From: Planctomycetota bacterium
Lineage (GTDB): Bacteria > Planctomycetota > UBA1135 > UBA2386
DNA length: 64,000 bases
Direction: 5' to 3'
Assembly: GCA_965228735.1 (NCBI GenBank)
Contig: OZ245838.1
Span: 1,312,001-1,376,000, forward strand
Part shown: piece after piece, positions 2,800-64,000 of the stretch
Layout: the number at the start of each line of letters is the position of its first letter
Numbering within the stretch: position 1 is the first letter of the stretch
Program-made: the position numbers and the translations under genes
Notes under the pieces: model-generated
What the model saw: only the letters and a program-made list of their open reading frames with translations
Databases searched by the model: none
Told to the model about the DNA's origin: nothing

Positions 2800-3291
2800 A
2801 TGATTCGCGTCCTCGGCATCGCCTCGTTGTTCACGGCCATCGCGCTCACGCCGGCCACCGCCACGGCCCAGTTCGTGGAGAACCCGTTCGTCCAGAACCC
2901 GGTGAACGGGCCCGTCGTCGAGGATCCGGTCGTCGAGGGCCCGGTCGTGGAGGACCCGGTCATCGAAGGCCCGGTCGTCGAAGACCCCGTGGTCGAGGAC
3001 CCCGTCGTGGAGGACCCAGTGGTCGAGGACCCAGTGGTCGAGGATCCGGTCACCGAGCCCGGCAAGAAGAAGCGCTGCAAGCAGCGCCTGCGCGAACGCC
3101 TGCAGAAGATCCGAGCCAAGCTGCAGCAGAAGCGCGCGCGCATGCAGCAGAGCAAGGAACGGTGCAAGCAGAAGAAGAGCTGCCGGTCCGACATCTTCGA
3201 GGTCATCCGCAAGCACAAGGAACGCCTCGCGAAGCGCAAGGCCGCCCTCAAGGCGAAGCTGCAGGCGAAGAAGAAGCGCGGCCGCAAGTAG
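2800..3291 (+). CDS. Secreted hypothetical protein with acidic PVVED repeats and a basic C-terminus
   Basis: GGGAG RBS before ATG 2800; signal peptide MIRVLGIASLFTAIALTPATATA|Q; 10 PV(V/I/T)E(D/G/P) units; K/R-rich tail with three Cys. Confidence 0.85.
   Translation: MIRVLGIASLFTAIALTPATATAQFVENPFVQNPVNGPVVEDPVVEGPVVEDPVIEGPVVEDPVVEDPVVEDPVVEDPVVEDPVTEPGKKKRCKQRLRERLQKIRAKLQQKRARMQQSKERCKQKKSCRSDIFEVIRKHKERLAKRKAALKAKLQAKKKRGRK
2911..3060 (+). repeat. 10 x 15-bp coding tandem repeat (consensus CCN GTS GTS GAR GAC)
   Basis: Visible directly in the DNA; synonymous variation between units. Confidence 0.9.
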
Positions 3292-3321
3292 CGGCCCGCC
3301 CGCTCGGCCCGATCAACGGGC

Positions 3322-5136
3322 TCAGCTCTGCTCCTGCAGCCGTCGCAGGGCCTTGAGCTTCTGCGAATAGGCGCGGTTGATCGCGCGCCGGCGCAAGCGC
3401 CCGAGCAGCTGGTTCGGGTCGTCCGCGGCCACGACCGGCAGCTCGTCGAGCAGCACGGCGTCGAACGTCTCGATCGCGCGGTGCAGATCGTCCGTCGGCC
3501 GCACGACGACCGGCGGACTCGACATCACGTCCGCGGCGGTCGCGAGCTGATAGATCTCGCGGTCGAACGTGAACTGCCGCACGTCGTTGGCCGAGAACAC
3601 GCCGACGAAGCGATCGTCCTGATCGAGCACGGGGAAGTAGTCCTCGCGGCGCTCGACGAGCAGCTGCACGATCTCCCGCAGCGGCGTGTTCGAGCGCACG
3701 GCGAACACCTCGCTCGGCTCGAAGACGTCCTGCACCGTCATCTTCTCGAGCAGCGCGACCTGATACTCGCCCGCGTGCGCCGGCGACAGCGCGCGATGCG
3801 GCACCTGCTTGACGTAGAGCGCGGTGCCGCGGCTCAGCAGGAACGTGAGCCCGCAGACCCACATCGCGGGCAGCAGCAGCGCGTAGCTGCCGGTCATCTC
3901 GGTGACCATGACGATCGTGCTGATCGGCGTCTTGGCCGCGCCGGCGAAGAACCCGCACATGCCGACGACGACGAAACTGGCGGGGTGCGAGACGAGGCCG
4001 AGCTCCTGCCCGATGAGGCCGACAGCGCCCCCGATCGCGCCGCCGACGACCATGCTCGGGCCGAACACGCCGCCGCTGCCGCCCGCCGCGATCGTGCACG
4101 ACGTCGCGACGATCTTGGCGAGCGCGATCACGATCAGCAGGCGCACGCCCTCCCACCCGAGCACGGCGCCATCGAGCGACTCCTGCAGGATGCCGTAGCC
4201 GTTGCCCGCCGCGCAGAGCCCGAGCTCGTCACCCGTGAGCTGCCACGCGAGAACGGCGATGCCGCCGCAGAGCAGGCCGCCGATCAGCGCCACGAGCGGG
4301 CGCGGCAGCGGCAGCCGGTGGAACCAGCCTTCGCTCGCGTAGAAGAACTTCACGAACAGGAAGATCACCGGCACGAGCGTCAGCGCGAGCACGGTATGCG
4401 GCAGCAGCTCCGCGAGGTCGGAGAAGCGGAAGCCCTCGCCGAGTTCGAAGAGCGTGCCGAACTCACCGACGAACCCGCAGTAGACGCAGTACGACACCGC
4501 CGACGACAAGAACGACGGCATCACGACCTCGCCCTCGAACTCGGCGTCGCGGTAGAGGATCTCGGACGCGAACAGCGCACCTGCGAACGGCGCCCGGAAG
4601 ATCGCGCCGACGCCGCCCGCCATGCCGCACGCGAGGAGGATGCGGCACTGGCTGTCGCGCAGCCCGAGCTTCTGTCCGAGCCAGGAGCCCGTACCGGCGC
4701 CGATCTGCGCGATCGGCCCCTCCCGACCGCCGCTGCCGCCCATGCCGATCGTCAGCGCCGACGTGATCGCCTTGACGAACGGCACGCGACCGCGGACTCG
4801 ACCGCCCTTGTGGTGATACGACTCGATCGCGGCATCCGTGCCGTGCCCCGTCGCCTCGGGCGCGAGCCACCGGCAGATCAGCGCGCTGAGCGAGCAGCCG
4901 ATCGCCGGCAGGAGCAGCAGCCACAGGATGCTCGGCTCGCCGGCGCCCTCGCCGTGCGGGAAGAACTGCACCTCGCCGCGCGGGCCCTCGGGCGCGTAGT
5001 TGGCGAGCCCGCTGAGCGTGAACTTCGTGATCAGGCCGCTGAGGAACTCGAACGCGATCGCGCCGAGACCCGCGAGCAGCCCGACGAGCATCGCGAGCGG
5101 GTAGATGGAAGTGCGAAGCGAGCGGAACGAAGCCAA
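3322..5136 (-). CDS. ClC-family chloride channel/antiporter with C-terminal CBS pair
   Basis: GHGTD, GREGP and GGVFGPS ClC motifs; many TM helices; CBS-like C-terminus (YFPVLDQDDRFVGVFS). Start codon uncertain. Confidence 0.93.
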   Translation of the reverse strand: MASFRSLRTSIYPLAMLVGLLAGLGAIAFEFLSGLITKFTLSGLANYAPEGPRGEVQFFPHGEGAGEPSILWLLLLPAIGCSLSALICRWLAPEATGHGTDAAIESYHHKGGRVRGRVPFVKAITSALTIGMGGSGGREGPIAQIGAGTGSWLGQKLGLRDSQCRILLACGMAGGVGAIFRAPFAGALFASEILYRDAEFEGEVVMPSFLSSAVSYCVYCGFVGEFGTLFELGEGFRFSDLAELLPHTVLALTLVPVIFLFVKFFYASEGWFHRLPLPRPLVALIGGLLCGGIAVLAWQLTGDELGLCAAGNGYGILQESLDGAVLGWEGVRLLIVIALAKIVATSCTIAAGGSGGVFGPSMVVGGAIGGAVGLIGQELGLVSHPASFVVVGMCGFFAGAAKTPISTIVMVTEMTGSYALLLPAMWVCGLTFLLSRGTALYVKQVPHRALSPAHAGEYQVALLEKMTVQDVFEPSEVFAVRSNTPLREIVQLLVERREDYFPVLDQDDRFVGVFSANDVRQFTFDREIYQLATAADVMSSPPVVVRPTDDLHRAIETFDAVLLDELPVVAADDPNQLLGRLRRRAINRAYSQKLKALRRLQEQS

Positions 5137-9953: not shown

Positions 9954-12900
9954 ATGCCGTTCCCCGGTCGCCGTCCGTTCGTCCTCGCCGTCGCTGCGAT
10001 TCTCAGTCTCGGCGCCGGCGCCTCTGCCCAGTGCCCGCCCGGTGCGCCGATGCCGACCGACCTCGCGTCGCTGTCCGCGGACCCGGTCGACGGCAGCCCG
10101 GCGCACGTGCGCTGGACGCTGGGCCGGAAGGCCATCGACGGCGGCGATCTCGCGACCGCTCGCGAGCATCTGCGGGCGGCGCTCGCGCTGCACCCTTGTT
10201 CGGCCGCGGTGCTGCTCGACCTGCTGCGCGCGAGCGCCGGGGACGCCGACCTGCTCGCCTACTGGACCGACCGCTTCGTGCGCGCCGCGACCGGACCGCG
10301 CGGCCGCCTGAAGCTCGACGGCCAGACCAAGAAGCTGCTGCCGGACGGCGTCGACCTCGGCCCGGCCCAGAAGCTCGCGCAGCAGCGCGCCGGCGCGATC
10401 GCGGAGCTCGCCCGCTTCGCGCAGAAGCAGCGCCCGAGCGGCGGCAGGAACGCGGCCCGCGCGCAGCTGCTCGCCTACGCGAGCGAGCTGCTCCTCGCCA
10501 TCGGTGACGGCACGCCGGGCCCGCTCGACGAAGTCGCGGACAAGGTGCGCCGCGCGCGGTCGGCGATCGAGCCCGACTACGACGAGGTGTTCGACGCGCT
10601 CGAACGCGTCATGCGCACGACCCCGACGGGCGGCGGCGGCGGCGAAGAGGACGCGACCGCGATCGAAGAACGCGCCCTGCGCGCGGCCCGCATCCTGGCC
10701 GGCCTCGCGCGCCAGGCCACCTTCAAGGACCTGCAGGGGCCACAGCCGCCCGACATGACCGCCATCGGCCGCCGCGCGCGCGAGTTCCTCGCGGGCAAGG
10801 ACGCGGACGCGCAGGGCGAAGCCAGGGTGTGGACGATCGCCGAGCTGGAAGCGCTCGACGAAGAACAGCGCGTCCAGTTCACCGACTCCCACGACACGTG
10901 GCGGCGACCCGGCGTCGCCGAGAGCCTGACGGGCAAGTATCGCATCGAGACCATCTGCGGGTTCGAGACACTGCTCGGCACGGCCCGCACCATCGAACTG
11001 CACCACGACCGCCTCGCCGGCCACTTCGGCAAGGACCCGTTCGGTTCCCGCCAGGGCATCGTGCGGATCGTGCCGGAGGACTCCGGGCTCGAGACCGAGG
11101 GCGCGCCGTACTGGTGGGCCGCCGGGTTTCAGAGCGGCGACCGCACGACCGTGCGGTTCGCGTGGAGCACGATCCCGCGGCTGGGCAAGGTCCTGACGCA
11201 CGAGCTCACGCACCGCTTCGACGGCGTCCTGCGCCCGTTCCTCGGCGCCTGGTACAAGGAAGGCCACGCGTCCTGGACCGGCGGTCACTACGCGCAGATG
11301 GCGGACACCGAGTTCGTCGAGGACCACCTCGACAAGGGCGCCGTCGACCAGACGTGGCGCAAGGACTACGGCCGGAAGCGCGAGTTCACGAAACTCATCG
11401 AGGGCACGATCGAGGAGTACCGCGACAACTATGCCGCGGGCTACGCGCTCTACTCGTATCTCCGCACGTTCCCGCCCGGCGAACGCCCGCTCTTCCGCGA
11501 CGCGCTCGAGCGCTACGAGAAGAACTCGCGGGCGGGACAGAAGAACCCGCTGCGCTACTTCGAGCAGACCTTCTGCGACGGCGAGAACGGCCGCCCCGAG
11601 TCGCTCGACGACTTCCTCGACGGCTGGCAGGCGTTCTTGAACGGGGTCGGCATGTGGCTCGTGCGCAACCGTGACGACAGCAACCGTTGGGTCGCGCGCT
11701 ACGGCAGCGTCGGCCCCGGCGACTCGGGCAAGAAGGTCTCGGATCGCCCGACCTGGTCGTGGGCGAGGAAGCGCGCGGAGCCGTTCTTCGGCCAGGATCA
11801 CGCCGCCGCGGCGACGCGTCTGCTCGCCGAGGTCGGAGATCACGCCGGCACGGTCGCGGCCGGCACGTGGTCGCTCACGGTCGACGGCTGGCGGCCGGAC
11901 ACGGTGACGCGCGCGGTGCACGCCGCGCAGCAGCTGCCGAGCAAGAGCTCGGCGCACGCGATCACCGCGCTGGCGCGCACGCGTTTTCCCGGCATCGGCA
12001 GCCCGCCGGCCACGCCGCTCGCGAGCCAGCTGGCGCGCACGAGCGGCTTCGTCACGGCACTCGCGGAGCGCGCGGTCGAGCTCGGCCAGGCCGGTCACAG
12101 CAAGGCCGCGACGGCGCTCGCCGCGGATCACGATCGGATCGCGCGCCTGCTCGATCTGCCGGCGCTCGACCGGGCCAGACTCCAGAGCGCGGCGGAATCC
12201 ACGCCGCCGCCGACCGTCGCGGAGTATCTCGGCGGCCACGGCTGGACCGAGTCGGGCCTCACGGGCTTCGAGGATCGCCGGCGCGAGGGCCTGTGGTACG
12301 TCGAACGGAACGGCGACGTGCACGTCGGTCGCGAGCGACCGCGCGAGACGACGGGTTCGGTCGATCGCCGCGCGCACCAGCGCGACGCGTTCGTGCACAC
12401 CGTGCGCTGGATCGCCCCGGGCAGCTACGTCCTGCGCGGGCGGGTCCACTTCACCACGTCGTACGTGCGCGGCGCGATCGTGTTCGGGCACGCCCGCCGC
12501 GACCGCGACCTGCGGCTGCGATTCACGTCGGGCGACTTCGAGTACGCGGTCGGCCGACGCGAGACGAGCCGCGCGTCCGGCAAGGTCTCGTTCCGCTTCG
12601 ACGGGCTCTGGGAACGCGACCCCGAGATGCCGCGCAACAACACCAACACGAGCGCCGAGGTCCGCGACGAAGCCGCGTGGTTCGACTACGAGATCGTCGT
12701 CCACGGGCCGCGCGTCGAGATCAAGATCAACGACGGCAAACGCAAGTCGATCCTGTACGCGGTGCACGACGGCGCGCCCATCGAGGGTCACGTCGGGTTC
12801 GCGATGGCGATGGGCGCGATCCGGGTGCAGGAACCGACGGTGCAGCGCCTCGACGCCGCCGACCCGCACGCGCTGATCGGCCTCGACATCGGCCGCCAGC

Positions 12901-16297: not shown

Positions 16298-17482
16298 CTA
16301 CTGCCAGGCGTGCAGGGCCTCGGCGACGGTCGGCGTCGGATCGCCGCTCCAGCTGTGCGGCGGGTTGATGCCGAAGTCGCCCGTGTGGCAGAACGAGGTC
16401 GCGCGGAACGGCGAGTTGTTCAGCACGAACTCGCTGCGCGGCACGAACAACAGGATCGAATCGCCACGGACGATGAATCGCGCGGCGGTCGGCACCGTCG
16501 AGATCGAGTTACCGGCTCCCACCGTCTTGCACGTCGCGGACCACCCGCCCGTCGGCGTGTAGTTGAGTTCGTACCAGCGGTCCGTGCCGTCGTAGAAGTC
16601 GTTCGGGAAGCTCGGGCTCGCGGCGTAGTTGTTCGCGACGTTCGCGTCCGAGTCCACGACGAACGCATAGGTGTAGCGCTGGGTCTGGTCGTTCAGCGGC
16701 ACGGCCTCCGATACGGACATCCAGAACGTGCAGTACTCCCCTTCGGTCAGCGGCAGGGTCGGCGTCCCCGCAACGGTGTAGCCGTTCGGCCCCTGCCCAT
16801 CGGGGAACGGCACGTTGTCCTGCGTGCCCTCGAACGTCGCGGCCAGCTGGGCCAGGCTCCAGAACAGGACCATCGCGCCCATGAGGCGAATCTCGGTGAT
16901 CAGACTCGGCAGCTTCGGCGGCACGAGAGCCGAGCTGTGCCGCGTCAGCACGGCGATCGGCGCGAGGACCGTGGCGGTGAACCAGAGCAGCTGCAGCTGC
17001 GGGTTGCCGAACAGTGCGAACATCGCCCCGACGTCACTGTTGAACGCGGCGTTCACCCATTCGATCGTGAAGTTCTGGACCAGGCCCGAGACGACGAGCT
17101 CGGCGATCACGACGACCGACAACGTCGCCAGCAGCACGGCGGCGGGTAATGCGCGCACGAAGACCTGCCGGGACTCACCCGGTGCGAGCACGACCTCGGA
17201 CTGATCGGCCTCGATGTCGGTGCCCTGCACCCGGAACCGGATGTCGCCATCGACGGTCCCGGCCGCCAGCGTGTTCGTCAAGACGATCGTGCCGAGCGCG
17301 ACCGCGGCGACGGCCAGCGGGCTCAGCAGGACACGACCGCCCCCCGTTACGGTAGCCGAGACGCTGCCGGGGCCGGCGCCGCCCGGAGTCCCGGAGCCAC
17401 CGCTGCTGTGGAAACAACCGCCGACGAACAGCAGCGCGAACAGCAGCGTGAACAGGACGGGGCACGAACGGAGGAGATTCAT
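16298..17482 (-). CDS. Hypothetical protein, probable lipoprotein
   Basis: Hydrophobic leader ending VGG|C, then a G/S linker; no family recognised. Confidence 0.75.
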   Translation of the reverse strand: MNLLRSCPVLFTLLFALLFVGGCFHSSGGSGTPGGAGPGSVSATVTGGGRVLLSPLAVAAVALGTIVLTNTLAAGTVDGDIRFRVQGTDIEADQSEVVLAPGESRQVFVRALPAAVLLATLSVVVIAELVVSGLVQNFTIEWVNAAFNSDVGAMFALFGNPQLQLLWFTATVLAPIAVLTRHSSALVPPKLPSLITEIRLMGAMVLFWSLAQLAATFEGTQDNVPFPDGQGPNGYTVAGTPTLPLTEGEYCTFWMSVSEAVPLNDQTQRYTYAFVVDSDANVANNYAASPSFPNDFYDGTDRWYELNYTPTGGWSATCKTVGAGNSISTVPTAARFIVRGDSILLFVPRSEFVLNNSPFRATSFCHTGDFGINPPHSWSGDPTPTVAEALHAWQ

Positions 17483-23527: not shown

Positions 23528-23706
23528 GACTGTCCCCTCGGCGCGCGCGGCAGCAAGCCGTGCTGCGTCCATCGAACGGAATCGACAGTCGCAGGGGCCG
23601 GTCTGAACGTGAGACCCCCGCCAGTCTCAATCCGAGCTTGTCGGCCGCGCCTGCACGGCTAGCGTGGCGCTCTACGGGTCCGCGGCAACGGCGGGTCCGC
23701 CCCCAC

Positions 23707-23795: not shown

Positions 23796-24039
23796 TTCAC
23801 TCGAAGTCCGTGGCGGTGAGCGCAAGCTGCGCTGATCGCCGACGTTGAGCACGAGCCCGGCCAGCCGGTGGCCTGGGAATCCTGACAGTCACTGTCAGGA
23901 ACCCCACCACCAAGCACGGCGAGGTTCGAGAATGGAGATCAGCACGACGACCGGCGCGGCGCGCCCAACCCGGTCCCAGCGCGAACGGCGAACGAGCGGC
24001 GACCGCTCGTCGCCGCTCGGTGCGCTGCACTGCACGGGC

Positions 24040-25221: not shown

Positions 25222-25322
25222 AACACCACTCGGGGCAACGGCGCGCCTCATGAACGTGCCGGGCCGTGCTCGCCTGCGCGGCCGCCCCTGTTTCTCCAGC
25301 AGGCGAACCGATCGAGGCGACG

Positions 25323-35945: not shown

Positions 35946-36022
35946 CCGCAAGAGTCGCTTGCCCGGGCCTGATCTCCTGAACTCTCCGCCCGTGGGCTCA
36001 CCTATCCGCGGGCTCCGCTGAG

Positions 36023-39529: not shown

Positions 39530-39769
39530 CGGATGCTGTCCTGCCTGCCGGGGCACATCCCCGTGCAGGTGGACTCATCCTTGGGCAGCGAGCGGCGACG
39601 AGCGGCGGCCGTTCGTGCGCCGCTCGTTGGCAGATGGACGTGGCGCAGCCGCATCAGGCAGAGTTCAATCGCACCCAGGAAATGGCAGTCTCGAACTACG
39701 ATCGCCTTCCAAGAGTCGTAGCCCTCTTGGCCCTGTCCCTCCCCCTCGCCGCGCAGACCAGCGGAGGCG

Positions 39770-41110: not shown

Positions 41111-41396
41111 GACCGACGAGCAGAGCGACGGACTCCTCCGTCGGCAACCGAAGTTGCTGGCCGCAGCACGCCGAGGTCACTCGTCGATACTCCACAACAC
41201 TCCGCGTCAACGGAATCCCGGACCCGATCGGGCCCGAGTAGGCCATTCAGGCCGTTGTTGGCACTCCCGGCCCTGTCGCCCAGCTATGCTCCCGCACCGA
41301 CCCGCTTCGGCTCTGCCGTTGCAGGCCGTGCCATTGAGACGTAGCTCGCTGTCGAGCAGCGCGCTTTGCGCGGAATCGATGCCTGGAGGTCGCGAC

Positions 41397-45590: not shown

Positions 45591-47618
45591 GTGCTGAAGC
45601 CTGCCCGTTCCCCACTCTTCGTTACGAACGCCCTGCGGTTCACCGGCCCGTTGGCGATCACTGCCGCGTTCGCCGCCACTCTTTCCGCCCAAACCGATTG
45701 GCCCCGAACCGATTGGCCCCAGTATCGGGGCGTCCACGGCGACGGGGTGGCCGCACCGCAGCAGATCCTGCAGGCCTGGGGCCCCGAAGGCCCGCCCGAG
45801 CTCTGGCGGCGGGAGTTCGGCACGGGATTCTCCACCGTGGCGTCGGTCGGCGACCGGCTCTACACGATGGGCGCACCGGCCGAACTCGAGGAAGCGTTCT
45901 GCCTCGACGCACGAACGGGCGAGACCATCTGGCGCGTTCCGCTCGGACCGCGCTTTGCCGATCAGTTCGGCGACGGTCCGCGCGCGACCCCCACCGTCGA
46001 CGGCGACACGGTCTTTGCGGTGTCGTCGACCATGCAACTCGCCGCGATCACCGCGACGGACGGCGAAGTCCGATGGCAGAAGGACCTGCTGACGGAGTTC
46101 GCCCTCGAGCAGCCGCGCTTCGGATTCTCGGCCTCGGTGGTCGTGGTCGGGGACCGGGCCGTGCTCGAGGTCGGCGCCGGCGAGGGCAAGGCCGTCATCG
46201 CGTTCGCGCGCGCGACCGGCGACATCGTGTGGACCGCGCTCGACGGCAAGCCGAGCAAGTCGACCCCGCTGCTGGCGGAGCTCGACGGCGTGCCACAGCT
46301 GATCTTCAACCGCCCGTCGGAGATGGCAGCGCTGTCGCTCGACGGCGAGGTGCTGTGGACGCACGAGGCGGGGCGGGACACCATCGCGATGGCCCACATC
46401 GTGCCACCCGACGTCGTTCTCACGTCGTCGGCCTACATGGGCAAGGGCACCGAAGCGGTACGAGTGAGCCGCACGGGCGAGGAATTCACGACCGAGCGCG
46501 CCTGGGTGAACCGGCGCTTTCGCAACCACTTCAACAACTCGGTCCTCGTCGGCGGTCACCTGTACGGGTTCGACAACTCGACGCTCCGCTGCCTCGATGC
46601 CGTGACCGGCGAGCTCGCGTGGTCGAAGCGAGGTTTCGGCAAGGGCTCGCTGATCGCGTGCAGCGACCTGTTGTTCGTGCTCGGCGATCAGGGCGTCCTG
46701 GCGCTCGTTGCCGCCGATCCCGAGCGCTTCCGCGAGCTCGGGCGCGTGCAGGCAATGCAGGACGGTGCCGGACGCTGCTGGACCTCACCGACCCTCGCCT
46801 CGGGGCGGCTGTTCGTTCGCAACCTCGAGGAGATCGTGGCCTACGACGTGCGCGCGGCGGCGACGACGGTGACGCCGACGCCGCCAACCGCGATCGCGAT
46901 GCCGGACGGCGACACCACGAAGCCGACGTCGGCAGCGAACGCCGAGTTGCAGCTGCCCGAGATTCTCCGACGCTACGCCGAGGCTCGTGGCGGCCTCGAC
47001 CGGTGGCGCGAGGTCCGCACCCTCGAGATGCAGGGCACGTTCCGGGCCTTCAGCGAGAGCGGCCCGTTCACGCTGCAGCGCCGCCGCGAGGACCTGTACC
47101 GGTTCGAGTACGCCATGGGCGACAACATGGACGCCCGTGGTCGCGACCGTGAGGGCCTGTGGTGGCGCTACCACCTGTTCCAGGTCACGGAGCCCGCCAG
47201 GGTCGAGGCCGCCCCCTACCATCGCCAGATGAAGCGCGAGTCGATGTTCGAACCCGCACTGCTCGGCGCCGCGGAGAAGGGGATCCAGGTCAAACGCGTC
47301 GGCCGCGGCAACGTCGACGGTCAACCGACGATCGAACTCGAGCTGACGTTTCCCGACGAGTCGAAGGAAACGTGGCACCTGCACCCCGAGACGTTCCTCG
47401 CGGTCGCGATCGATTCGACGGTCGTCGACATGACCCAGACTCGCGAGCCGATGTCGATGCGAACGTTCTGCTCCGACTTCCGCACCGTCGACGGCCTCGT
47501 GCTGCCGTTCCGGACCGCGATGGAGTTCGGGGCCCGACTCGAGGAGATCGAGGTCGATCGCGTGACCGTGAATCCGGAGCTCGATGCGGCGGCGTTCGAC
47601 ATGGCGCGCAAGAAGTAG
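45591..47618 (+). CDS. PQQ-like/BamB-type beta-propeller fused to a C-terminal LolA-like beta domain
   Basis: DWPQYRG, CLDARTGETIW, GPRATP, WTSPTLASGRLFVR; then YAEARGG...SDFRTVDGLVLPF...VNPELDAAAF. Confidence 0.85.
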   Translation: MLKPARSPLFVTNALRFTGPLAITAAFAATLSAQTDWPRTDWPQYRGVHGDGVAAPQQILQAWGPEGPPELWRREFGTGFSTVASVGDRLYTMGAPAELEEAFCLDARTGETIWRVPLGPRFADQFGDGPRATPTVDGDTVFAVSSTMQLAAITATDGEVRWQKDLLTEFALEQPRFGFSASVVVVGDRAVLEVGAGEGKAVIAFARATGDIVWTALDGKPSKSTPLLAELDGVPQLIFNRPSEMAALSLDGEVLWTHEAGRDTIAMAHIVPPDVVLTSSAYMGKGTEAVRVSRTGEEFTTERAWVNRRFRNHFNNSVLVGGHLYGFDNSTLRCLDAVTGELAWSKRGFGKGSLIACSDLLFVLGDQGVLALVAADPERFRELGRVQAMQDGAGRCWTSPTLASGRLFVRNLEEIVAYDVRAAATTVTPTPPTAIAMPDGDTTKPTSAANAELQLPEILRRYAEARGGLDRWREVRTLEMQGTFRAFSESGPFTLQRRREDLYRFEYAMGDNMDARGRDREGLWWRYHLFQVTEPARVEAAPYHRQMKRESMFEPALLGAAEKGIQVKRVGRGNVDGQPTIELELTFPDESKETWHLHPETFLAVAIDSTVVDMTQTREPMSMRTFCSDFRTVDGLVLPFRTAMEFGARLEEIEVDRVTVNPELDAAAFDMARKK

Positions 47619-51298: not shown

Positions 51299-52327
51299 TC
51301 ACCGCACCATCGACCGCACCCCCGCGCTGAACGCGACGCCGGCGGGCGCGAGCGGGTCGAGCACGAGCGCCTGGGCGTAGATGTCGAGCAGCGTGATGCC
51401 GGGCGGGATCGCGATCGGCATCGTGGCGAAGCCGACTCCCGGTTGCTGCTGACCCGGCAGCGCAACGACCAAGGTCGTGAGCGGCGAGACGAGCAAGGTG
51501 CCGCCGAGGATCGGGGTGTTGTCCGGCGCGAAACCGACGGCGAGCGCGGCCAACGAACCACCCAGGGCGCGCGAGAGCCGCAGGCTCATCGTGAATCCGG
51601 CCTCGGGGCAACACAGACCATCCAGATCGGGCGTGAGGCCGCCGCTGCCGGCGACGCCGTTGCCGTAGGAGCTGTGACCGCCCGGGCAGGTCGAAGGCCC
51701 CGGCGTCACCGTGAGCCGGATGTAGTCGACGATCGTGTCATCGCCGACGAACACGTCGAGGAAGCCGCGCTGTTCGAGTTCGGGCAACACATTGCAGGTT
51801 CCGCCATCAGCGAGCGGCAGCCGTTCGAGGTCGAGCGTCAACGTCGCCGTCTGGTTGAAGGTCCAGCCCCCGAGCAACCCGTTCGGTTCCGCGAAGAACA
51901 CGCAACCGCTGCTGGTGAGCGGACCGAACGTCCGGCGGTAGACGACGGCATCGGCCAGCTCCACGGTCGTCGCATCCGCGAACATCAGCAGGATCCCGTC
52001 CGTCTGCGGGTTCCCGGTCGCCGAGGCCCGCATGGGAATCTCGAGGCGGGCCGCCGCGATACTCGACGGCAGTCCCGTGAAGGTGTGCGCCACGGAGGTG
52101 TTGTTGGCGCCCCCACAGAACCCGGCGCCGACGTCGAACCCCTGCAGGCCAACCCCGACCGAGCCGCACTGCAGCGTGGCGACGGCGGCCGGGCTCGGCG
52201 ATGCAGGGTCCGGCGGACACGCGAAGTTGTCCGCGTTGCCGGCCATGAAGATCTGGCCGGGAACCGGGGATGCGACGGCGAGCACAAACAGCAGGCCGAC
52301 CGCACGACGCGTGACGTCGAGAAGCAT
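51299..52327 (-). CDS. Secreted hypothetical protein with the shared C-terminal domain
   Basis: Signal ...ASPVPG|Q; beta-rich domain (GDDTIVDYIRL); CTD at about 51299-51685. Confidence 0.82.
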   Translation of the reverse strand: MLLDVTRRAVGLLFVLAVASPVPGQIFMAGNADNFACPPDPASPSPAAVATLQCGSVGVGLQGFDVGAGFCGGANNTSVAHTFTGLPSSIAAARLEIPMRASATGNPQTDGILLMFADATTVELADAVVYRRTFGPLTSSGCVFFAEPNGLLGGWTFNQTATLTLDLERLPLADGGTCNVLPELEQRGFLDVFVGDDTIVDYIRLTVTPGPSTCPGGHSSYGNGVAGSGGLTPDLDGLCCPEAGFTMSLRLSRALGGSLAALAVGFAPDNTPILGGTLLVSPLTTLVVALPGQQQPGVGFATMPIAIPPGITLLDIYAQALVLDPLAPAGVAFSAGVRSMVR

Positions 52328-52487: not shown

Positions 52488-53864
52488 CTACCGCACGTTC
52501 ATCTCGGCCGCGTTCGACGTCGCCCCCGGCAACGGCCGCGTGACCGCCGGGTCGATCGACAGCGCCTGCAGGAAGATCACGAGGCCGCTGAGCGACGGGT
52601 TCGCCGGGATCGGCAGCGACCAGCTGGCCGTGCCGGACGGGTGCGTCACGAGCACGGACACGGCCGTCGACGTGTAGCCGCGGCAGCCCGTGAGACCGAT
52701 GCCGGTCAGATCGATCGGCAAGGGCGCGCCACCCGACACGGTGTCACTGAAGCCAGCCGTGACGAAGGCGGCGCCGCCGGTGCTCGGCAGGTCCACGATC
52801 GTGACATCCGTCGTCGTGCCAACCGCCGGCATCGCGCCGGGCACGATCCGCGGCGGCAGCAGGTTGCTGCCGTCACAGCCCGTGCCGAACGTGCGATACG
52901 TCGCCGCGTTGCCGCCGAGCTCCCAGGTGTCGCCGATCGCGCCCGCGCCGTCGAAGCCACCGAAGACGACGGTCTGACCCCGAACGAGGTCGTACGCCAT
53001 CGCCATCGCCGAGTTGCCCTGCGGGCGAGCGGCGGTCACCAGCTGCCGCCACCCGCGGCCGTCGTACTCCCAGGTCTCGTCGAGATCGGCCACGCCATCC
53101 GAACCACCGAACAGCACGCAACGCGCGCGCTGCACGTCGAACACCATGAACGAGTCGGTCCGCGGCGACGGGGCGCCATCGGTCGTGACCTGCCTCCAGC
53201 TGCCGCCGTCGTACTCCCAGGTCTCCCCGAGCAACGCCGGCTCGCGCCCGCCGAACAGCACGGTCGTGGCGCGCGCGGCGTCGTAGGCCATCGAATGCCC
53301 CTCGCGCGGCCCCGGCGCCGTGGCGGGCGACACCTGGGTCCAGTCGATGCCGTCGTACTCCCAGGTGTCCCCCAAGAAGTTGGCCTGGTCGCTGCCGCCG
53401 AACAGCACGATCACGTTGCGCGCGCTGTCGAACGTCATCGCACTGAGCAGCCGCGCGCTCGGCGCGTTCGCCGGCTGGCGATTGCTCCAGTCCGTGCCGT
53501 CCCACTCCCAGGTCTCCCCGAGCAGGTTGAAGTTGAAGTCCCAGCCACCGAACATCACGGTCCGTGCCCGCACGCTGTCATAGGCCATGACGTGACTGTC
53601 ACGCTCGGTCGGCACGGTCGCCGGCGAGCGCAAGAACCAGTTGGTGCCGTCGTATTCCCAGGTGTCCTGGAACACGATCGACCCGGTCGGCGCGTTCCAG
53701 CCGCCGAACACGACGGTCCGGGCGCGAGCCACGTCGAACGCCGAGCGCGGGAACGTGGCGCCCGCGGGGCTCGCAGCGGGGTTGGGCTGCACCCAGTTCT
53801 GGGCGTCGAGCGCGTTGATGATCAGGGAAGCAGAGCAGGCGAGATAGGTGGCGGCGTGCCGCAT
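52488..53864 (-). CDS. Secreted kelch-like beta-propeller protein with the shared C-terminal domain
   Basis: GGAG RBS; six MAYDxxRxxxVxFGG...TWEYDG-type repeats; CTD at about 52488-52907. Confidence 0.9.
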   Translation of the reverse strand: MRHAATYLACSASLIINALDAQNWVQPNPAASPAGATFPRSAFDVARARTVVFGGWNAPTGSIVFQDTWEYDGTNWFLRSPATVPTERDSHVMAYDSVRARTVMFGGWDFNFNLLGETWEWDGTDWSNRQPANAPSARLLSAMTFDSARNVIVLFGGSDQANFLGDTWEYDGIDWTQVSPATAPGPREGHSMAYDAARATTVLFGGREPALLGETWEYDGGSWRQVTTDGAPSPRTDSFMVFDVQRARCVLFGGSDGVADLDETWEYDGRGWRQLVTAARPQGNSAMAMAYDLVRGQTVVFGGFDGAGAIGDTWELGGNAATYRTFGTGCDGSNLLPPRIVPGAMPAVGTTTDVTIVDLPSTGGAAFVTAGFSDTVSGGAPLPIDLTGIGLTGCRGYTSTAVSVLVTHPSGTASWSLPIPANPSLSGLVIFLQALSIDPAVTRPLPGATSNAAEMNVR

Positions 53865-56165: not shown

Positions 56166-57584
56166 ATGTCGCACACCACCATCAACCTCGCTGTCATCAC
56201 CATCCTCACGGCCGGCGCCTGCGCCCAGATCGTGCCGTGGACCCAGCAGTCGCCGGCCAGTTCCCCGTCCGTTCGTGAACGCACCTTCACGGCGACGGAC
56301 GGCAACGTCTTCTACATGTATGGCGGCCAAATCGGCGCCTCGACGACGGGCCGCGACGACCTCTGGTCGTGGGACGGCTCGGCGTGGACGCAGCTCTCGA
56401 CCGGCACCGGACCCGGCACCCGCTGCGGCGGCGTCATGGCCTACGATCAGGCGACCGGCAAGCTCGTCCTGTTCTCGGGCAAGGGCACCGGCGGCAACTG
56501 GAACAACTACGACAACCAGACGTGGGAGTGGGATGCCGGCAACGGCTGGGTCCAGATGAGCCCCGGCACGTCGCCGGACCCGCGCTGGCTCATGGGTGAC
56601 TCGGCCGTCTACACCCCGGCCTACGGCGTGCTGTTCCACGGCGGCAAGGCCTGGGACTCGACCGGGACCGCCTACGACTCGAACGAGACCTGGGCCTGGC
56701 TCGGCGGCACCTGGGTCAACCTGCCCACGGCCAACGGGCCCACGGTCTTCAACCACTCGATGGTCTACCGGCCGGCTCCGCACGACGACGTGATCCTGTT
56801 CGGCGGCAAGCTGAACGGCGCTGACAGCGCCGCCACCTACCGCCTCGATCTCAGCACGCTGACCTGGTCGCAGGTGACGACCGCGGTGTCGTACCCCGCG
56901 ACGGGCACGTTCGCCCACCTGTCGTACTACAACCCGATCACCGACAAGGTCGTCGTGCACGGCGGCACCGGCGGCAGCTCGATCAGCGTGACCTACGAGT
57001 TCGACGGCGTCGATTGGACGGACGTCTCGAGCGCCGGCGCACCGTCGTGCCGCAACGGCGGCGCAGAGTGGGTGAACGCGCTCAGTGTGGCCGTCGCGGG
57101 TCCGATGAGCGAGAACAACGGTGCACGCGACCGGGTCTGGCACCATGGCCCGAGCACCTGGGGCACGTTCACGATCATGGGCACGGACTGCCCGTCGAGC
57201 ACGGCGCAGACCGCCACGATCTCGTCGCCGGACATGCCGTCGATCGACGCGACGCTCGACCTCGACTTCGACAACCTGACGGCCGGCACGTTGACGTTCG
57301 GTGTGCTGGGCTTCTCGGACACGATGCTCGGCGGCGCCGCCCTGCCGATCCCACTCGCGCAATTCCTGCCGGGCACCGATCCGGCCTGCAGCGTGCAGGT
57401 GAGCAACGACGTCAGCCTGTTCCTCGCGACCGCGGGCACGAGCACGACCCTCGCGCTGTCGTTCCCGAACAACCCGGTCCTCGTCGGCACCCGATTCTTC
57501 GCGCAGGGCGTGCAGATCGAGCTCGGCGCCCCGATCACCGCGGCGAACACGAAGTACGCCGAGATCGTCCTCGGGGAGCTGTAG
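56166..57584 (+). CDS. Secreted kelch-like protein with the shared C-terminal domain
   Basis: Signal GACA|Q; YGG/FSG/HGG...TWxWxG repeats; CTD from about 57159. Confidence 0.88.
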   Translation: MSHTTINLAVITILTAGACAQIVPWTQQSPASSPSVRERTFTATDGNVFYMYGGQIGASTTGRDDLWSWDGSAWTQLSTGTGPGTRCGGVMAYDQATGKLVLFSGKGTGGNWNNYDNQTWEWDAGNGWVQMSPGTSPDPRWLMGDSAVYTPAYGVLFHGGKAWDSTGTAYDSNETWAWLGGTWVNLPTANGPTVFNHSMVYRPAPHDDVILFGGKLNGADSAATYRLDLSTLTWSQVTTAVSYPATGTFAHLSYYNPITDKVVVHGGTGGSSISVTYEFDGVDWTDVSSAGAPSCRNGGAEWVNALSVAVAGPMSENNGARDRVWHHGPSTWGTFTIMGTDCPSSTAQTATISSPDMPSIDATLDLDFDNLTAGTLTFGVLGFSDTMLGGAALPIPLAQFLPGTDPACSVQVSNDVSLFLATAGTSTTLALSFPNNPVLVGTRFFAQGVQIELGAPITAANTKYAEIVLGEL

Positions 57585-57728: not shown

Positions 57729-59258
57729 ATGCACTCTCGCCACCTCCCTCGGTTCGCGCTCGTCGCGGGCGTCGCCGCGTTCCTGGCCGTTCCGGTCGTT
57801 CGGGCGCAGGTTCAACCGATCCCGGTCCTCACGCGCTCCGTCACGCTCGACTCGGGCTACGTCCAAAACCCCACGAGCACGACCGCGATCGTGTTCCGCC
57901 AGGACCTCGTGGTCCCGGACGCCCTCTGGCTGCGGCTGCGGTTCGGCACCACGAATCTGCCCGCGGGCGGTCGGTTGCGGCTCACCTCGCTGCACGACGG
58001 CGCGGTCCAGTGGTTCGACGCCGGCAGTCTGCGTGACTACGGCAACGGCTCGGCCTACTTCAACGGCGCGGGGGTCACGATCGAACTGTTCGCCGCCGGG
58101 GGCAGCACCGGCAATCGCGTCGCGGTGACCGCGGTCGAGCTCGAGTCGCGCGACACCCCACGCGTCGATTCGATCTGCGGCAACACCGACGACCGGGTGC
58201 TCGCGACCGACCCGCGCATCGGGCGCGCCGTCACCGGCGCCTCGGCCTGCACGTGGTGGCTCATCAGCGAATGCGTGATCGTCACGGCCGGCCACTGCGC
58301 GGACAACGCGACGACGCCGACGATCATCGGGTTCAACCTGCCGCTGTCGACGACGGGCGGGACGATGGTCCATCCGCCGCCGGACGACCAGTACCCGGCG
58401 ATCGTGCCGACACTGCAGTTCCAGGATGCGGGCATCGGCCGCGACTGGGCCGTCATGCGCATGGGGCGCAACAGCAACCATGGCGAGTACCCCGGTGAGC
58501 GCCAGGGGGCGTGGTTCGAGCTCGGCCCGGTGCCGAATGGCATCGCTGGCGTCGACATCCGGATCACGGGCAACGGGCGGGTCTCGGCGCCGGTATCGCT
58601 GACGTGGAACTCCGTGACGAAGACCCACGTCGGACCGCGGGTCACCACGGGCACCGCCGATGCGCTGCGGTACGCGACCGACACGACCGGCGGCAACTCC
58701 GGTTCACCCGTCATCCACGAACAGACCGGGCGTGCCATCGGCGTGCACACGCACGGCGGGTGCAACTCGTCGGGCGGCGGCAACTACGGCACGCGAATCG
58801 ACAAACCGGCGTTCGCCGCGGCAGTCAACAGCGCACTCGCGCTCGCGTGCGGCACGTTCGCGTCGTTCGGCCAGGGCTGCGGCGGCGCGCTCGGGCCGCC
58901 GGACCTGTCGATGAGCGGCCTGCCCGACATCGGCACGACGGCCAACGTCGACCTCGGCAACCTGCCGGCGCAGCAGTTCGGGCTCGTCGCCTACGGCTTC
59001 TCCGACACGGTCTACCAGGGCACGACGTTGCCGTTCGATCTCGGCGCCGCCGGGCTCCCGGGCTGCACGCTCTACGCCGCGCCGGACCTCAGCGTCTTCG
59101 TGCCGACCGCGAACGGCAGCACCAGCTACCCGCTCGTGATCCCCAACGCGCCCGCGTTCGTCGGCGTCGACCTGTTCGTCCAGTATTTCGTCACCGATCC
59201 GACGTCCGCCGGCGGCGCCGCCGTTTCGAACGCGGCGCGGATCCACATCGGCGCGTGA
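57729..59258 (+). CDS. Secreted trypsin-like (S1) serine protease with pro-domain and the shared C-terminal domain
   Basis: SICG..DDR, VTAGHC (H), RDWAV (D), GGNSGSPV (S), GVHTHGGC; CTD from about 58848. Confidence 0.93.
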   Translation: MHSRHLPRFALVAGVAAFLAVPVVRAQVQPIPVLTRSVTLDSGYVQNPTSTTAIVFRQDLVVPDALWLRLRFGTTNLPAGGRLRLTSLHDGAVQWFDAGSLRDYGNGSAYFNGAGVTIELFAAGGSTGNRVAVTAVELESRDTPRVDSICGNTDDRVLATDPRIGRAVTGASACTWWLISECVIVTAGHCADNATTPTIIGFNLPLSTTGGTMVHPPPDDQYPAIVPTLQFQDAGIGRDWAVMRMGRNSNHGEYPGERQGAWFELGPVPNGIAGVDIRITGNGRVSAPVSLTWNSVTKTHVGPRVTTGTADALRYATDTTGGNSGSPVIHEQTGRAIGVHTHGGCNSSGGGNYGTRIDKPAFAAAVNSALALACGTFASFGQGCGGALGPPDLSMSGLPDIGTTANVDLGNLPAQQFGLVAYGFSDTVYQGTTLPFDLGAAGLPGCTLYAAPDLSVFVPTANGSTSYPLVIPNAPAFVGVDLFVQYFVTDPTSAGGAAVSNAARIHIGA

Positions 59259-59351: not shown

Positions 59352-60308
59352 ATGCTTCGCACCGTCGCTCTGTCTGCTCTTCTCGCCGCCACCGTTCCGG
59401 CCCAGTCCCCACCGTGCCTGGCCGAGAACGACCAGACCACCAGCGCGAGCAACGCGATCACCGCGTTCGGGTTCGGCGGTCAGAACTCCTTCGCGTGGCA
59501 GATCACGCCGACGAGCACGCTCGTCGTGCTGGCTGCGCGCGTGTTCACGGAGAACACGACGCTGACCGGTGACCGGTTCATGGCGGTCGAGATCTGGGAC
59601 GACCAGAACGCGGCGCCGGGAACGCGGCTCGCGGGCGGCGGATGGCGCATCGACAACAACCGCCCGGAGTCGTGGCAAGGCGCCAACCTCGATCAGCCCA
59701 TCGTGCTGACGCAGGGCGTGCCGGTGTGGCTGGTCTGGGTCGAGCCCGGGTTCAGTCAACCGATGACCGAGCCCGGCGGCGCCACGCAGTTGCCGCACCA
59801 GACGCGTTCGGGCACCGGCGCGTGGACACCCCGCTCGGCGTCCGCGCCGAAGTTCCGCCTGTTCTGCAACTACCTCGACGACGTCAACTCGGCGCCGGCC
59901 GGCTCCGGCTGTCCCCTGTCGACCAACCGGATTCCGACGGCCTACACCAACGAAGCGCCGCAGATCGGCAACGGCGACTTCCTCTTCGAATCGAGCGGCA
60001 CCCCGGCCGGCGGCGCGGTCTTCGCGGTCATCGGCGTCAACCCGAACTTCCCGGCCACGCCCGTCCTCGGCCTGCCCGCCGGTTGCGACCAGCTGACCGA
60101 CGCGGTCGCGTCGCTGTTGCTGTTCGCGGGCAACGGTGACACGCGTGGTCCCGACTTCGCGGGCCACGCGGAGCTCGATTTCCCGATCCCGAACAACCCG
60201 GGGCTCGTGGGCGCATTCTTCGCGGTGCAGTTCGCGCCGATCGATCCCGGCGCGACCGCGCCCCTGCCGTTCGGCACGAGCAACGCGCATCGCATCACGC
60301 TCTTCTGA
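59352..60308 (+). CDS. Secreted hypothetical protein with the shared C-terminal domain
   Basis: GGAGG RBS; signal TVPA|Q; beta-sandwich-like N-domain; CTD from about 59880. Confidence 0.88.
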   Translation: MLRTVALSALLAATVPAQSPPCLAENDQTTSASNAITAFGFGGQNSFAWQITPTSTLVVLAARVFTENTTLTGDRFMAVEIWDDQNAAPGTRLAGGGWRIDNNRPESWQGANLDQPIVLTQGVPVWLVWVEPGFSQPMTEPGGATQLPHQTRSGTGAWTPRSASAPKFRLFCNYLDDVNSAPAGSGCPLSTNRIPTAYTNEAPQIGNGDFLFESSGTPAGGAVFAVIGVNPNFPATPVLGLPAGCDQLTDAVASLLLFAGNGDTRGPDFAGHAELDFPIPNNPGLVGAFFAVQFAPIDPGATAPLPFGTSNAHRITLF

Positions 60309-61199: not shown

Positions 61200-62927
61200 A
61201 TGAAGTCCATCCCGACCGGCACTCCCGCACTCCTGACGTTCTTCCTCGCGCTCGGCCTCGCGCCGGCTCAGGACGCGGCCGGCCCGCCCCGCATGCGGCT
61301 GTACGACGTCCGCGACATCGTTCGGCTCGAGCCGAACTACCTGCCCGCGGCGGCCGTCGACGCGTCGCTCGTGCCGGCGGGACTGCACGAGAGCGACGAT
61401 CCACACGTCGCGCTCGAGCTCGGCGACCTCGTCAACTTCCTGTACATGAGCACGGACCCCATGTATTGGGACCGGGAAGGCGTCGAACTCCGCGGTGACG
61501 ACAGCGGCTACCTCGCGATCTGGTGCGACGAAGGGATGCACGCGCAAACGCGCAGCGTGCTCAGCAAGATTCGCCGGGTGCTGTTCGAACCCGTGCTCGT
61601 CGAGCTGCACGAACTCCCCGGCTCCGTGTTGCAGGATCGCAGCGCCGTCCTTTCCGCGAACGCGGTGACCGACCTCCTCGCCGAGGCGGAAGAGCACGGG
61701 GTGCTCGCCGGCCGCGCCAATCCACGGCGGCCGCTGCTGCTCGAGTCGAAGCGGATCCAGAACCGGGTCGCGAGCTTCTCGATGGTCGTCGCGCAGGACG
61801 CCGCGACGCCCGACCTCGGGCTCGCCGCGGAGAACTACGGTTCGACCTGGAGCGTGCGCGTCCGCCGTACGCTCGACGAACGTATCCTCGTCACCCTGTC
61901 CGGCAGCGACCGCACCCTGACCCGTGGTCCGGTCTGCGAACTGCCGACCGCCGAACCCGGCAAGCTCGCGGCCGTCGAGCTGCCCGTGACGGCGATCGCG
62001 ACGGCACACGCGAGCGCCTACCTGCGACCTGGCGAAGGGTTGCTCATTGGCAGCGACGCCCCGGGCGGCGGCGCGCTCTGCCTGCGCATTCGGCGCACGC
62101 CGGCGGCCGACCTCACCGTCGGCGCAACGACGATCTACCCGGTGAGCAACCTCACCCGCGGCGCCGCGCGCCCGGCACCGATCCGCATCCCGTACTCCGA
62201 TGGCCATCTGCTCCCCGAGAGCGACGAAGAGCCGATGCCCGCGGTGTTCGACGATGGCCGCCTGCAGGAGTGGCTCACCGCCCAGGTCCAGCCCGACACC
62301 TGGGACGGTTCGCCCAACACGATGCACAGCCTCAACGGCCACCTGCTCGTGGCTGCCGACGACGACACCCAGAAGGGCGTCCGGGAAGCGCTGCAGCAGC
62401 TGCAGCTCATCGATGCACGCCAGTACACGCTCGAGGTCGCGTTCGGCGACGTGACGACCGAGCAGATCGCCGACCTCACGGACCTCGACCCGACGCAACT
62501 CGCCACCGCGTTGCCCCACCGCTGCGTGACGACGGTGTCCGCGAGCCGCGACACCAGCGTCAGCAGCACGTGGCACACGCCGTACGTCAAGGACTACCGG
62601 GCCGTGATCGCCACCGGCAGCTCCGCGGCATCGCCGCTCCTCGGCTCGATCGCGCGCGGCTTCCTCATGCAGGCGAGCGTCGGCCCGATGGACCAGGGGG
62701 CGACCCTGCTCGATCTGCGCATGACGCTGCTCACGCACGACGACAAGCCGGGCCAGTTGCAGGTCGCGCACCCTGGCTTCGCCCGACTCGCGAAGGTCGA
62801 CGTGCGCGAGAACACGCTGCGCGGGGCCACGTTGGTCACGCTCGGCGAATGGACGATCCTGCAGCTCGCGCCCCTCGCCGACGGCAGTGGCCATGTCGCG
62901 ATCGTGGCGCGACTGCGGTCCGCGTAG
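61200..62927 (+). CDS. Secreted protein with two tandem secretin-like modules
   Basis: Signal LAPA|Q; RLYDVRDI...W...YLAIWCDEGMHAQTRSVLSKIR and IYPVSNL...PDTW...HLLVAADDDTQKGVREALQQL N-domains, each followed by a beta-rich region (YVKDY...GFLMQASV). Confidence 0.65.
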   Translation: MKSIPTGTPALLTFFLALGLAPAQDAAGPPRMRLYDVRDIVRLEPNYLPAAAVDASLVPAGLHESDDPHVALELGDLVNFLYMSTDPMYWDREGVELRGDDSGYLAIWCDEGMHAQTRSVLSKIRRVLFEPVLVELHELPGSVLQDRSAVLSANAVTDLLAEAEEHGVLAGRANPRRPLLLESKRIQNRVASFSMVVAQDAATPDLGLAAENYGSTWSVRVRRTLDERILVTLSGSDRTLTRGPVCELPTAEPGKLAAVELPVTAIATAHASAYLRPGEGLLIGSDAPGGGALCLRIRRTPAADLTVGATTIYPVSNLTRGAARPAPIRIPYSDGHLLPESDEEPMPAVFDDGRLQEWLTAQVQPDTWDGSPNTMHSLNGHLLVAADDDTQKGVREALQQLQLIDARQYTLEVAFGDVTTEQIADLTDLDPTQLATALPHRCVTTVSASRDTSVSSTWHTPYVKDYRAVIATGSSAASPLLGSIARGFLMQASVGPMDQGATLLDLRMTLLTHDDKPGQLQVAHPGFARLAKVDVRENTLRGATLVTLGEWTILQLAPLADGSGHVAIVARLRSA

Positions 62928-63186
62928 CGACACTGTCAGGGACAGCAGCCGCAGCGCCTCTGCTGCCGCGCCGTGGGACCGACGCAACCAGCCTGACCCC
63001 GCGCACATGGCGCGTGGCAGCGTGAGCGGCGTCACGCGATGCCCCGGCGCAGATCCTGTGACACTCTGCGGACCGAAACCACCTCACGGTGCGGACGGTC
63101 GCACTTGCGGGCAGCCGCCGGCGATGGCCGCTACACTGCGCGTCTCGCCCTGCCCGTTCTTGCCTCCCAACCACCGATACCAACGC

Positions 63187-64000
63187 ATGCACACGCTCCC
63201 CTCGCGGCTCGCTCTCGCGACGCTGCTCGGCGCCACGGCGCTGCCCGCCCAGAACTTCATGGGCTTCTCCTACAACACGATCGCCAGCACCAACTCGCGC
63301 GGCCAGCTCGACGTCGCGGCCGGCGAGATCATGACGCGCATCGACGGCGACGAGTACGCCGGCTGGGGCACCGACACTCCCGGCATGCGCACGATCGCGA
63401 GCATCTTCCTGCTCGTGCAGGACCAGGACGCCGTCGCGACGCCGAACGAGCCGTTCGGCATCTACCTCTACCCCGAGGATCCGACCAACCCCGGCTTCCC
63501 GGACCTCGCGCAGCGCACGCCATTCGTCGTCGGCCTCGCCGGCCCGGGGGCGCCGCCGAGCGGCACGATCAACGGCGCGGTCATCGTCGCGACGCCGGCC
63601 GCGCCGGTCGCGGTTCCCATCCAGGGCGGCGGTGACGTGTTCGTCGCGCTCGATCTGCCGGCGGCGCCGAACTGGCCGAACGACGGACTGTCGACGCTCG
63701 TCATCCTCGGCTACCAGCCGGCCGGCGTGACGTTCTTCGACGCACCCGGGCAGGCCCAACAGACCGGCACGCCGCCGGGGCCCGAGAACTCGCACATGCT
63801 GACGAACGACGCCGGCGCGCTGACCTACGACGAACGCAGCCAGTTCGTCTTCGACATCGCGCACAGCACCGCGGCCGGCGTCGCGCTCGGCATCACGAAT
63901 CAGGCGTCGTTCCCGGCGAGCGCCAATCCGCCGCCGACCGGCTTCGGCCCGGCACCCGGCACCGGGTCGTTCTTCTCGGGCACGGCGCCGGACGTCTCGC
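63187..64000 (+). CDS. Secreted hypothetical protein, partial (runs off window end)
   Basis: Manual translation MHTLPSRLALATLLGATALPA|QNFMGFSYNTIASTNSRG..., open to 64000. Confidence 0.85.
   Translation, partial: MHTLPSRLALATLLGATALPAQNFMGFSYNTIASTNSRGQLDVAAGEIMTRIDGDEYAGWGTDTPGMRTIASIFLLVQDQDAVATPNEPFGIYLYPEDPTNPGFPDLAQRTPFVVGLAGPGAPPSGTINGAVIVATPAAPVAVPIQGGGDVFVALDLPAAPNWPNDGLSTLVILGYQPAGVTFFDAPGQAQQTGTPPGPENSHMLTNDAGALTYDERSQFVFDIAHSTAAGVALGITNQASFPASANPPPTGFGPAPGTGSFFSGTAPDVS

Follow-up and report, generated by a model that had tools for sequence, protein, structure and literature searches.

The 64,000 nt window analysed here (G000:C1:1312001-1376000, GC content ~69 %) is part of the genome, designated G000, of an uncultured member of the Planctomycetota, assembled as a single contig of 7.19 Mb and 93.4 % complete. 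It carries a series of genes for exported proteins in which the residue at +1, directly after the predicted signal peptidase I (SPase I) cleavage site, is Gln. An earlier note on this DNA had listed 14 such signal peptides and all 14 lie where that note placed them, two (52327 and 53864) on the minus strand and one (45591) with a GTG start. Its further claim, that almost every signal peptide here leaves Gln at +1, holds for the window, the remaining signal-like N-termini belonging to membrane proteins, to two lipoproteins (16298-17482 and 21251-23626) and to what is probably an anchor that is not cleaved (5244). When potential sites were ranked using a model in which the +1 residue is never scored, the cited Gln followed the first-ranked site in 10 of the 14 and the second in two (9954 and 44085), while that at 59352 ranked third and that at 39682, in a short broken open reading frame (ORF), fourth. 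Several of the proteins end in an unnamed C-terminal domain (CTD), found in seven copies in the window. The features are as follows, with a slash marking the predicted cut and the rank that of the cited site.

2800-2871, + strand: signal peptide ending ATA/Q, Gln codon 2869-2871, no CTD, rank 1
9954-10031, + strand: signal peptide ending ASA/Q, Gln codon 10029-10031, 1123 aa protein without CTD, rank 2
30829-30906, + strand: signal peptide ending LRA/Q, GlxA-like copper radical oxidase gene with an IS256-family interruption, no CTD, rank 1
34266-34328, + strand: signal peptide ending IAA/Q, FG-GAP repeat protein with CTD, rank 1
35487-35942, + strand: CTD
39682-39756, + strand: signal-peptide-like start ending LAA/Q, broken ORF of 54 codons, rank 4, weak
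44085-44147, + strand: signal peptide ending VAS/Q, Kelch-type propeller protein with CTD, rank 2
44997-45437, + strand: CTD
45591-45692, + strand: signal peptide ending LSA/Q, GTG start, PQQ-like propeller protein, no CTD, rank 1
51302-51727, - strand: CTD
52253-52327, - strand: signal peptide ending VPG/Q, Gln codon 52253-52255, rank 1
52491-52934, - strand: CTD
53799-53864, - strand: signal peptide ending LDA/Q, Kelch-type protein with CTD, rank 1
56166-56228, + strand: signal peptide ending ACA/Q, Kelch-type protein with CTD, rank 1
57123-57581, + strand: CTD
57729-57809, + strand: signal peptide ending VRA/Q, trypsin-like protease with CTD, rank 1, posterior 0.99
58809-59255, + strand: CTD, predicted immunoglobulin (Ig)-like beta-sandwich
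59352-59405, + strand: signal peptide ending VPA/Q, CTD protein, rank 3
59850-60305, + strand: CTD
61200-61271, + strand: signal peptide ending APA/Q, no CTD, rank 1
63187-63252, + strand: signal peptide ending LPA/Q, gene extending beyond the window end, weakly matching terminal CTD, rank 1

The pattern extends beyond the window, and what is seen is a Gln rule (Q-rule) in an uncultured planctomycete lineage. A gene caller written for this analysis gave 5205 genes, of which the 4812 with a coding score of at least 25 were used. The signal-peptide model was likewise purpose-written, and the genome-wide counts exclude lipoproteins as well as proteins with membrane helices further along the chain. 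At a score of at least 4 there are 740 predicted SPase I substrates, and 359 of them (48.5 %) have Gln at +1, against a background Gln frequency of 3.3 %; the corresponding counts were 512/1069 at a cut-off of at least 2 and 179/343 (52 %) at 6 or above. The comparison with other phyla that the earlier note had proposed thus revealed a clear excess, on a par with that in Prevotella: over 200 kb of each control genome the same code gave 6/12 exact +1 Gln for Prevotella and 1/13 for Escherichia coli K-12 (9/12 and 2/13 at or near the site). Two planctomycetes put through this code gave 0/12 and 1/11. Asp and Glu, though twice as common as Gln in the background, were at +1 in only 35 and 28 of the 740. 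In a further 14 % of the 343 substrates scoring at least 6 Gln was at -2 (AQA, AQS), and as these cases are probably overshoots by the model a tolerant criterion, namely [AGSC]Q anywhere from -7 to +4 around the predicted site, was also used. By this count 523/740 (71 %) comply, compared to 62-82/740 (~9 %) when the window was moved 15-100 residues downstream in four shifts, and no other residue tested near the site was enriched more than 2.1-fold. A Gln-anchored logo has Ala (43 %), Leu (28 %) or Val (17 %) at -3 and Ala (89 %) at -1. Of the 217 non-Gln cases, 45 were inspected by eye and many were signal anchors, pilins, missed lipoproteins or overshoots, and hence the real fraction among SPase I substrates is probably >70 %.

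The rule spans exported proteins in general. Among non-CTD classes picked by motif or family, Gln was found at or near the site in 9/10 sulfatases, 7/7 M28 peptidases, 3/4 secretins and 39/46 GxSxGG proteins. There are seven secretin genes in G000; no lipobox was called in four of them, and three of these begin with Gln after the signal peptide. Gln follows the lipoprotein Cys in only 10/285, i.e. there is no excess, and the numbers for twin-arginine translocation (Tat)-like substrates (2/9) are too low to read. Three SPase I-like genes are present in G000. A Gln fraction of about half or more that does not depend on cargo class is, along with a lipoprotein glutaminyl cyclase, part of what defines the Q-rule in Bacteroidetes, though the predictor used here differs from that of PMC5837995 and the host belongs to the Planctomycetota.

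The earlier note had also proposed a search for a periplasmic glutaminyl cyclase, and this identified two candidates of type II (M28 family). Thirteen M28 matches were found in G000, and two of these are adjacent paralogues, A (G000:C1:2061041-2062231) and B (2062232-2063359), both outside the window and both predicted lipoproteins, with lipoboxes LSAC and LAAC. The top solved match of both is 7d18 (E 5.5e-32 and 7.1e-22), followed among their best solved relatives by 7d1b, 3gux, 4fuu, 6qql, 7cje and human QC and animal cyclases, with aminopeptidases ranking lower. Equivalents of HsQC D159, E201, E202, D248 and H330 are present in both, but these five residues are common to aminopeptidases and alone do not discriminate; according to PMC5837995 such residues are compatible with either a cyclase or an aminopeptidase, and lipoprotein status strengthens the case for a cyclase. 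At the columns that do discriminate (PMC7948796, PMC5837995), A and B have Gly after D159, where aminopeptidases have Asn or Asp, and Trp before H330, where aminopeptidases have Tyr, whereas in all seven aminopeptidase-type M28 proteins of G000 the zinc Asp is followed by N or D and none has the Trp. A DDH motif is shared by A, B and three Bacteroidales sequences, the aminopeptidase-type rows having S/G/T-D-H(N). This Asp-Asp-His motif presumably supplies the equivalent of HsQC D305. No match to the type I cyclase (PF05096, a five-bladed propeller) was found in the 93.4 % of G000 that is available, using a control that matched in 3/14 genomes.

With one cyclase protein as query, 51 loci with relatives of the cyclase gene were recovered, all in metagenome-assembled genomes (44 Planctomycetota-group, five named only 'bacterium' and two Luminiphilus); this search named close relatives only, and no cultured species was among them. 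In 45 of the 51 the gene for A immediately precedes that for B; 46 of the 51 have enough upstream sequence. The +1 Gln count over these loci (18/69) was not used as an estimate, as the same neighbours recur, including the cyclase lipoproteins themselves. A third type II paralogue without an upstream partner was seen at G142:C1:2691904-2692791 and in loci L074, L079, L080 and L082, and several of its copies have an N-terminal membrane-anchor-like start instead of a lipobox. Downstream of the pair, 38/51 loci have an alpha/beta-hydrolase-like gene, and a divergent three-gene cluster beside the pair (G000:C1:2056223-2060938), which we take to resemble PrkA/YeaH/SpoVR, recurs in 20-32 of the 51.

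A tree was built from 33 planctomycete and three Bacteroidales cyclase sequences and six aminopeptidases, after one long-branch aminopeptidase had been dropped. A and B are old paralogues of the family to which G000 belongs (f1), and the Bacteroidales sequences group with those of families f7, f78, f51, f61, f64, f81 and f85 (100/100), not with f1. A forced grouping of f1 with the Bacteroidales sequences was rejected (approximately unbiased test, p-AU 4.4e-6). Because the group tested was defined after inspection of a quick tree, one sequence was dropped and there were only three Bacteroidales rows, the tree suggests rather than proves that this cyclase branch is of separate origin from that of the Bacteroidales.

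The type II profile was also run against 201 genomes of the phylum, and 32 match at E <=1e-74 with all others at E >=5e-32, a separation to be read in the light of most of the 32 having contributed to building the profile. A type II cyclase is present in all 11 genomes of the order that includes G000, and is duplicated in all four of its family. G010 has a fragment. Strong type I matches were found in 12/201, and either type in 43. All four members of families f7 and f13 that do not have type II carry type I (G157 and G189 in f7; G072 and G191 in f13), possibly a case of non-orthologous displacement.

Dipeptidyl peptidases (DPPs) are also well represented. G000 has seven S46 matches, corresponding to at least five genes (5 of 16 candidates scored), and nine DPP-IV N-terminal matches, three of them strong. 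S46 was found in 35/201 genomes, with a cyclase in 21 of the 35 compared to 22 of the 166 others, and of the 19 genomes in which S46 matched at least twice, 16 have a cyclase. Genomes of family f24 have a single S46 match each and no cyclase was found in them; in one, G181, Gln is at +1 in 1/11. In PMC10653852, capping is proposed to protect against periplasmic DPPs. The S46 pattern, a correlation among kin, fits this published rationale.

The Gln excess and the two cyclase-like lipoproteins together make pyroglutamate capping likely, and we consider it probable that the Gln-first exported proteins of this lineage are capped with pyroglutamate by one or both of the tandem lipoprotein cyclases and so shielded from the cell's own DPPs. 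Export via Sec and cleavage by SPase I after [ALV]-x-A would expose the Gln; a membrane-tethered zinc cyclase (A and/or B) would then likely convert it to pyroglutamate in the periplasm, and this would block the DPP7/11- and DPP4-type enzymes at the new N-terminus. The sequence pattern and the gene content are observed, and to these the analogy with Porphyromonas gingivalis would add the cleavage sites, the catalysis, the periplasmic location and the protective purpose. Of the Bacteroidota-style capping put forward in the earlier note, the Gln excess and the presence of cyclase candidates stand, while the host is not a member of the Bacteroidota and the proposed link to the CTD, considered below, is not supported.

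How closely Gln and cyclase go together was examined in 28 genomes of the phylum (27 sets, 96-140 kb each, score at least 3, 4-18 proteins per genome). Pooled +1 Gln was 32/83 (50/83 near the site) in genomes with a type II cyclase outside the Bacteroidales-like clade, 12/34 (16/34) in those with type I only and 16/86 (22/86) where no cyclase was found. Family f1 gave 5/10 and 5/8 and, in the same order, f2 gave 3/13, f3 2/5 and f4 0/5. Clean co-variation of cyclase with the Gln rule over the sampled genomes was not obtained. The best M28 matches of G148, G140, G062 and G021 were also considered as divergent cyclases and rejected, being aminopeptidase-type.

Several observations weigh against capping by the cyclase pair. 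Cyclase and Gln are loosely linked across the phylum (52/171 with any cyclase vs 16/86 with none, pooled). The five genomes with a type II cyclase inside the Bacteroidales-like clade, from f7, f78, f81 and f61, are low in Gln (8/54, or 12/54 near the site), and G174, of the same order as G000, has 0/5. G140 (5/10), G148 (3/7) and G062 (3/10) are Gln-rich and no cyclase was found in them. The samples are small, and related genomes do not count as independent. In G000 itself, the cleavage sites are predictions of a model with generic weights set by hand, and the top model scores show lower +1 Gln (35/83 at 8 or above and 4/14 at 10 or above). Finally, Gln can cyclise spontaneously, as noted in PMC5837995. 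Much of this would be expected if the Gln excess had nothing to do with cyclases and reflected a signal peptidase or lineage preference, with spontaneous cyclisation only and the M28 pair reserved for a few special substrates. We regard that explanation as unlikely: it leaves aside the occurrence of the cyclase throughout the order and its duplication throughout the family, type I stands in for type II in f7 and f13, and three of the five Gln-first proteins of G140 are similar neighbours in one stretch (L187, G140:C1:1400001-1420000).

Capping might instead be mechanistically tied to the CTD; it could, for instance, act as a second signal in CTD-dependent export. The CTD is ~135 residues long with a conserved Cys pair, and an iterated profile found it in 274 G000 proteins, once in each, ending within five residues of the C-terminus in 244 of the 274; a second profile found 237. 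At E <=0.001, 29,995 representative sequences match it, and its Atlas clusters are mostly Planctomycetota. Among the complete CTD proteins taken from the wider library, Gln falls at the site or close to it in 45/49. CTD matches were found in 42/201 genomes, with five or more in 39, and a cyclase is present in 25 of these 39 CTD-rich genomes vs 18 of the 162 others. Under the tolerant criterion Gln is also more frequent with the CTD (123/139) than without it (400/601; p = 8.5e-8). Yet the exact +1 fractions show no difference (73/139 vs 286/601; Fisher p = 0.30), and we attribute the gap in the tolerant counts to false positives, i.e. signal anchors, pilins and missed lipoproteins, that dilute the non-CTD set, because the clean non-CTD classes listed above reach 75-100 %. 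Moreover, no cyclase of either type was found in 14 of the 39 CTD-rich genomes, including all those sampled from f24 (5/5 CTD-rich) and CTD-rich f62, and two CTD proteins of the Gln-poor G181 begin with Gly. According to PMC5837995, pyroglutamate in Bacteroidetes does not govern secretion by the type IX secretion system (T9SS). A mechanistic tie therefore appears very improbable; the CTD and the Gln rule share lineages and are separable, neither requiring the other.

Least credible of all is that the excess is a prediction artefact, with sites chosen visually or by a model halting before any polar residue, for though the model does disfavour polar residues inside the signal peptide and four of the 14 cited sites were not top-ranked, Asp and Glu, which the model penalises more heavily and which are also the commoner residues, are rarely at +1, the same code returned next to no Gln from E. 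coli and the two planctomycetes, and the shifted-window control is independent of the exact site.

The CTD itself had no match in Pfam, NCBIfam or the PDB sequences. Its predicted structure is a confident beta-sandwich (predicted local distance difference test, pLDDT, 95.8) that matches generic Ig, FN3 and macroglobulin domains with Z 7-8.7, and the match to PorU (Z 7.0, root mean square deviation, rmsd, 3.1 over 94 aligned residues) is no better than those to unrelated Ig and FN3 domains. Foldseek returned nothing at E <=0.001; its highest-ranked entries (NPC2 and GM2 activator) prompted the idea of a lipid-binding role, which was rejected, as the matches (TM ~0.4, rmsd 11) are too weak. Like the T9SS C-terminal signal domain (TIGR04183) the CTD appears to fold as an Ig-like beta-sandwich and to form the very C-terminus of varied exported proteins, but it differs in its length and Cys pair, and TIGR04183 gave no match to it in a search whose control matched nowhere. 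PorV was not found in G000 with a working control, and SprA and PorP gave no match there in searches in which the controls were silent as well. A literature search for a C-terminal domain in OM190 or Saltatorellus found nothing relevant among the papers listed.

In Bacteroidetes the Q-rule is associated with the cyclase PgQC (PG2157) of P. gingivalis (PMC5837995, PMC10653852). PMC5837995 calls the rule Bacteroidetes-specific, with Gln at +1 in >48 % of SPase I substrates in 332/334 species, and its high-Gln outliers are Ignavibacterium album (77 %), Chloroherpeton (55 %) and four cyanobacteria (40-67 %). These outliers show that high Gln is possible outside Bacteroidetes, but they are scattered species or relatives within the Fibrobacteres-Chlorobi-Bacteroidetes (FCB) group; planctomycetes have 0 occurrences in the text and three supplements of that study. 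No report of a Q-rule in Planctomycetota was found in the literature searched, which mostly did not cover subscription journals. The planctomycete system resembles that of Bacteroidetes in its high +1 Gln across cargo classes, a lipoprotein type II cyclase and many DPP4- and DPP7/11-type peptidases. It differs, in addition to its host, in having two tandem paralogues rather than one, Glu rather than the Asp of Bacteroidales at the second zinc-ligand position, cyclases that group apart from the three Bacteroidales sequences in the tree, and no PorV found. The bacterial M28 type II cyclases 7d18 and 7d1b share motifs with paralogue B and are its top matches. They come, we believe, from an acidobacterium and from the planctomycete Fimbriiglobus ruber, respectively, and no proteome-wide Gln rule or tandem pair was found reported for their source organisms.

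It looks as if the rule was adopted separately from Bacteroidota, relying on another type II cyclase branch. A distant phylum that has the Gln excess, what seems to be its own cyclase branch and more S46 and DPP-IV peptidases is an independent test case, which fits the protective explanation, breaks the restriction of the rule to one phylum, and sets the Q-rule apart from the T9SS, the two being found together in Bacteroidetes. More speculatively, and we would not favour it at present, planctomycete lineages may have converged on the whole Bacteroidota envelope plan, i.e. Gln-first cargo, a lipoprotein cyclase (a distinct branch, in a conserved pair with possibly divided substrates), more DPPs, and hundreds of CTD cargoes on a so far undescribed surface route other than the T9SS. 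In practical terms, anyone annotating signal peptides of these uncultured planctomycetes, or studying their proteomes (where N-termini are expected to be blocked), gains a strong prior from the rule, and A and B are two testable enzymes.

Of the other features in the window, 2800-3291 encodes an exported 163 aa protein with VVEDP repeats and a C-terminal tail rich in Lys and Arg. A mobile island (23836-39653) has a phage-type integrase at 24085-25221, a fragment of a type I restriction subunit R at 26042-27361, a second IS256 transposase at 28861-30099 and, at 36903-39248, a primase-polymerase/AAA gene, and within the island the GC content falls to 0.655-0.667 across 28001-36000. The exported proteins of the island obey the Gln rule too. 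One of its genes, for the GlxA-like oxidase (30829-34262), is broken by an IS256-family element with its transposase at 31617-32792 and a 10 bp direct repeat at 31409-31418 and 32842-32851. At 39682-41176, the broken + strand ORF adjoins an ORF on the opposite strand that starts with a WapI-like stretch (PF24716) and ends in what looks like a CTD remnant, and this arrangement suggests that the region is a rearranged remnant.

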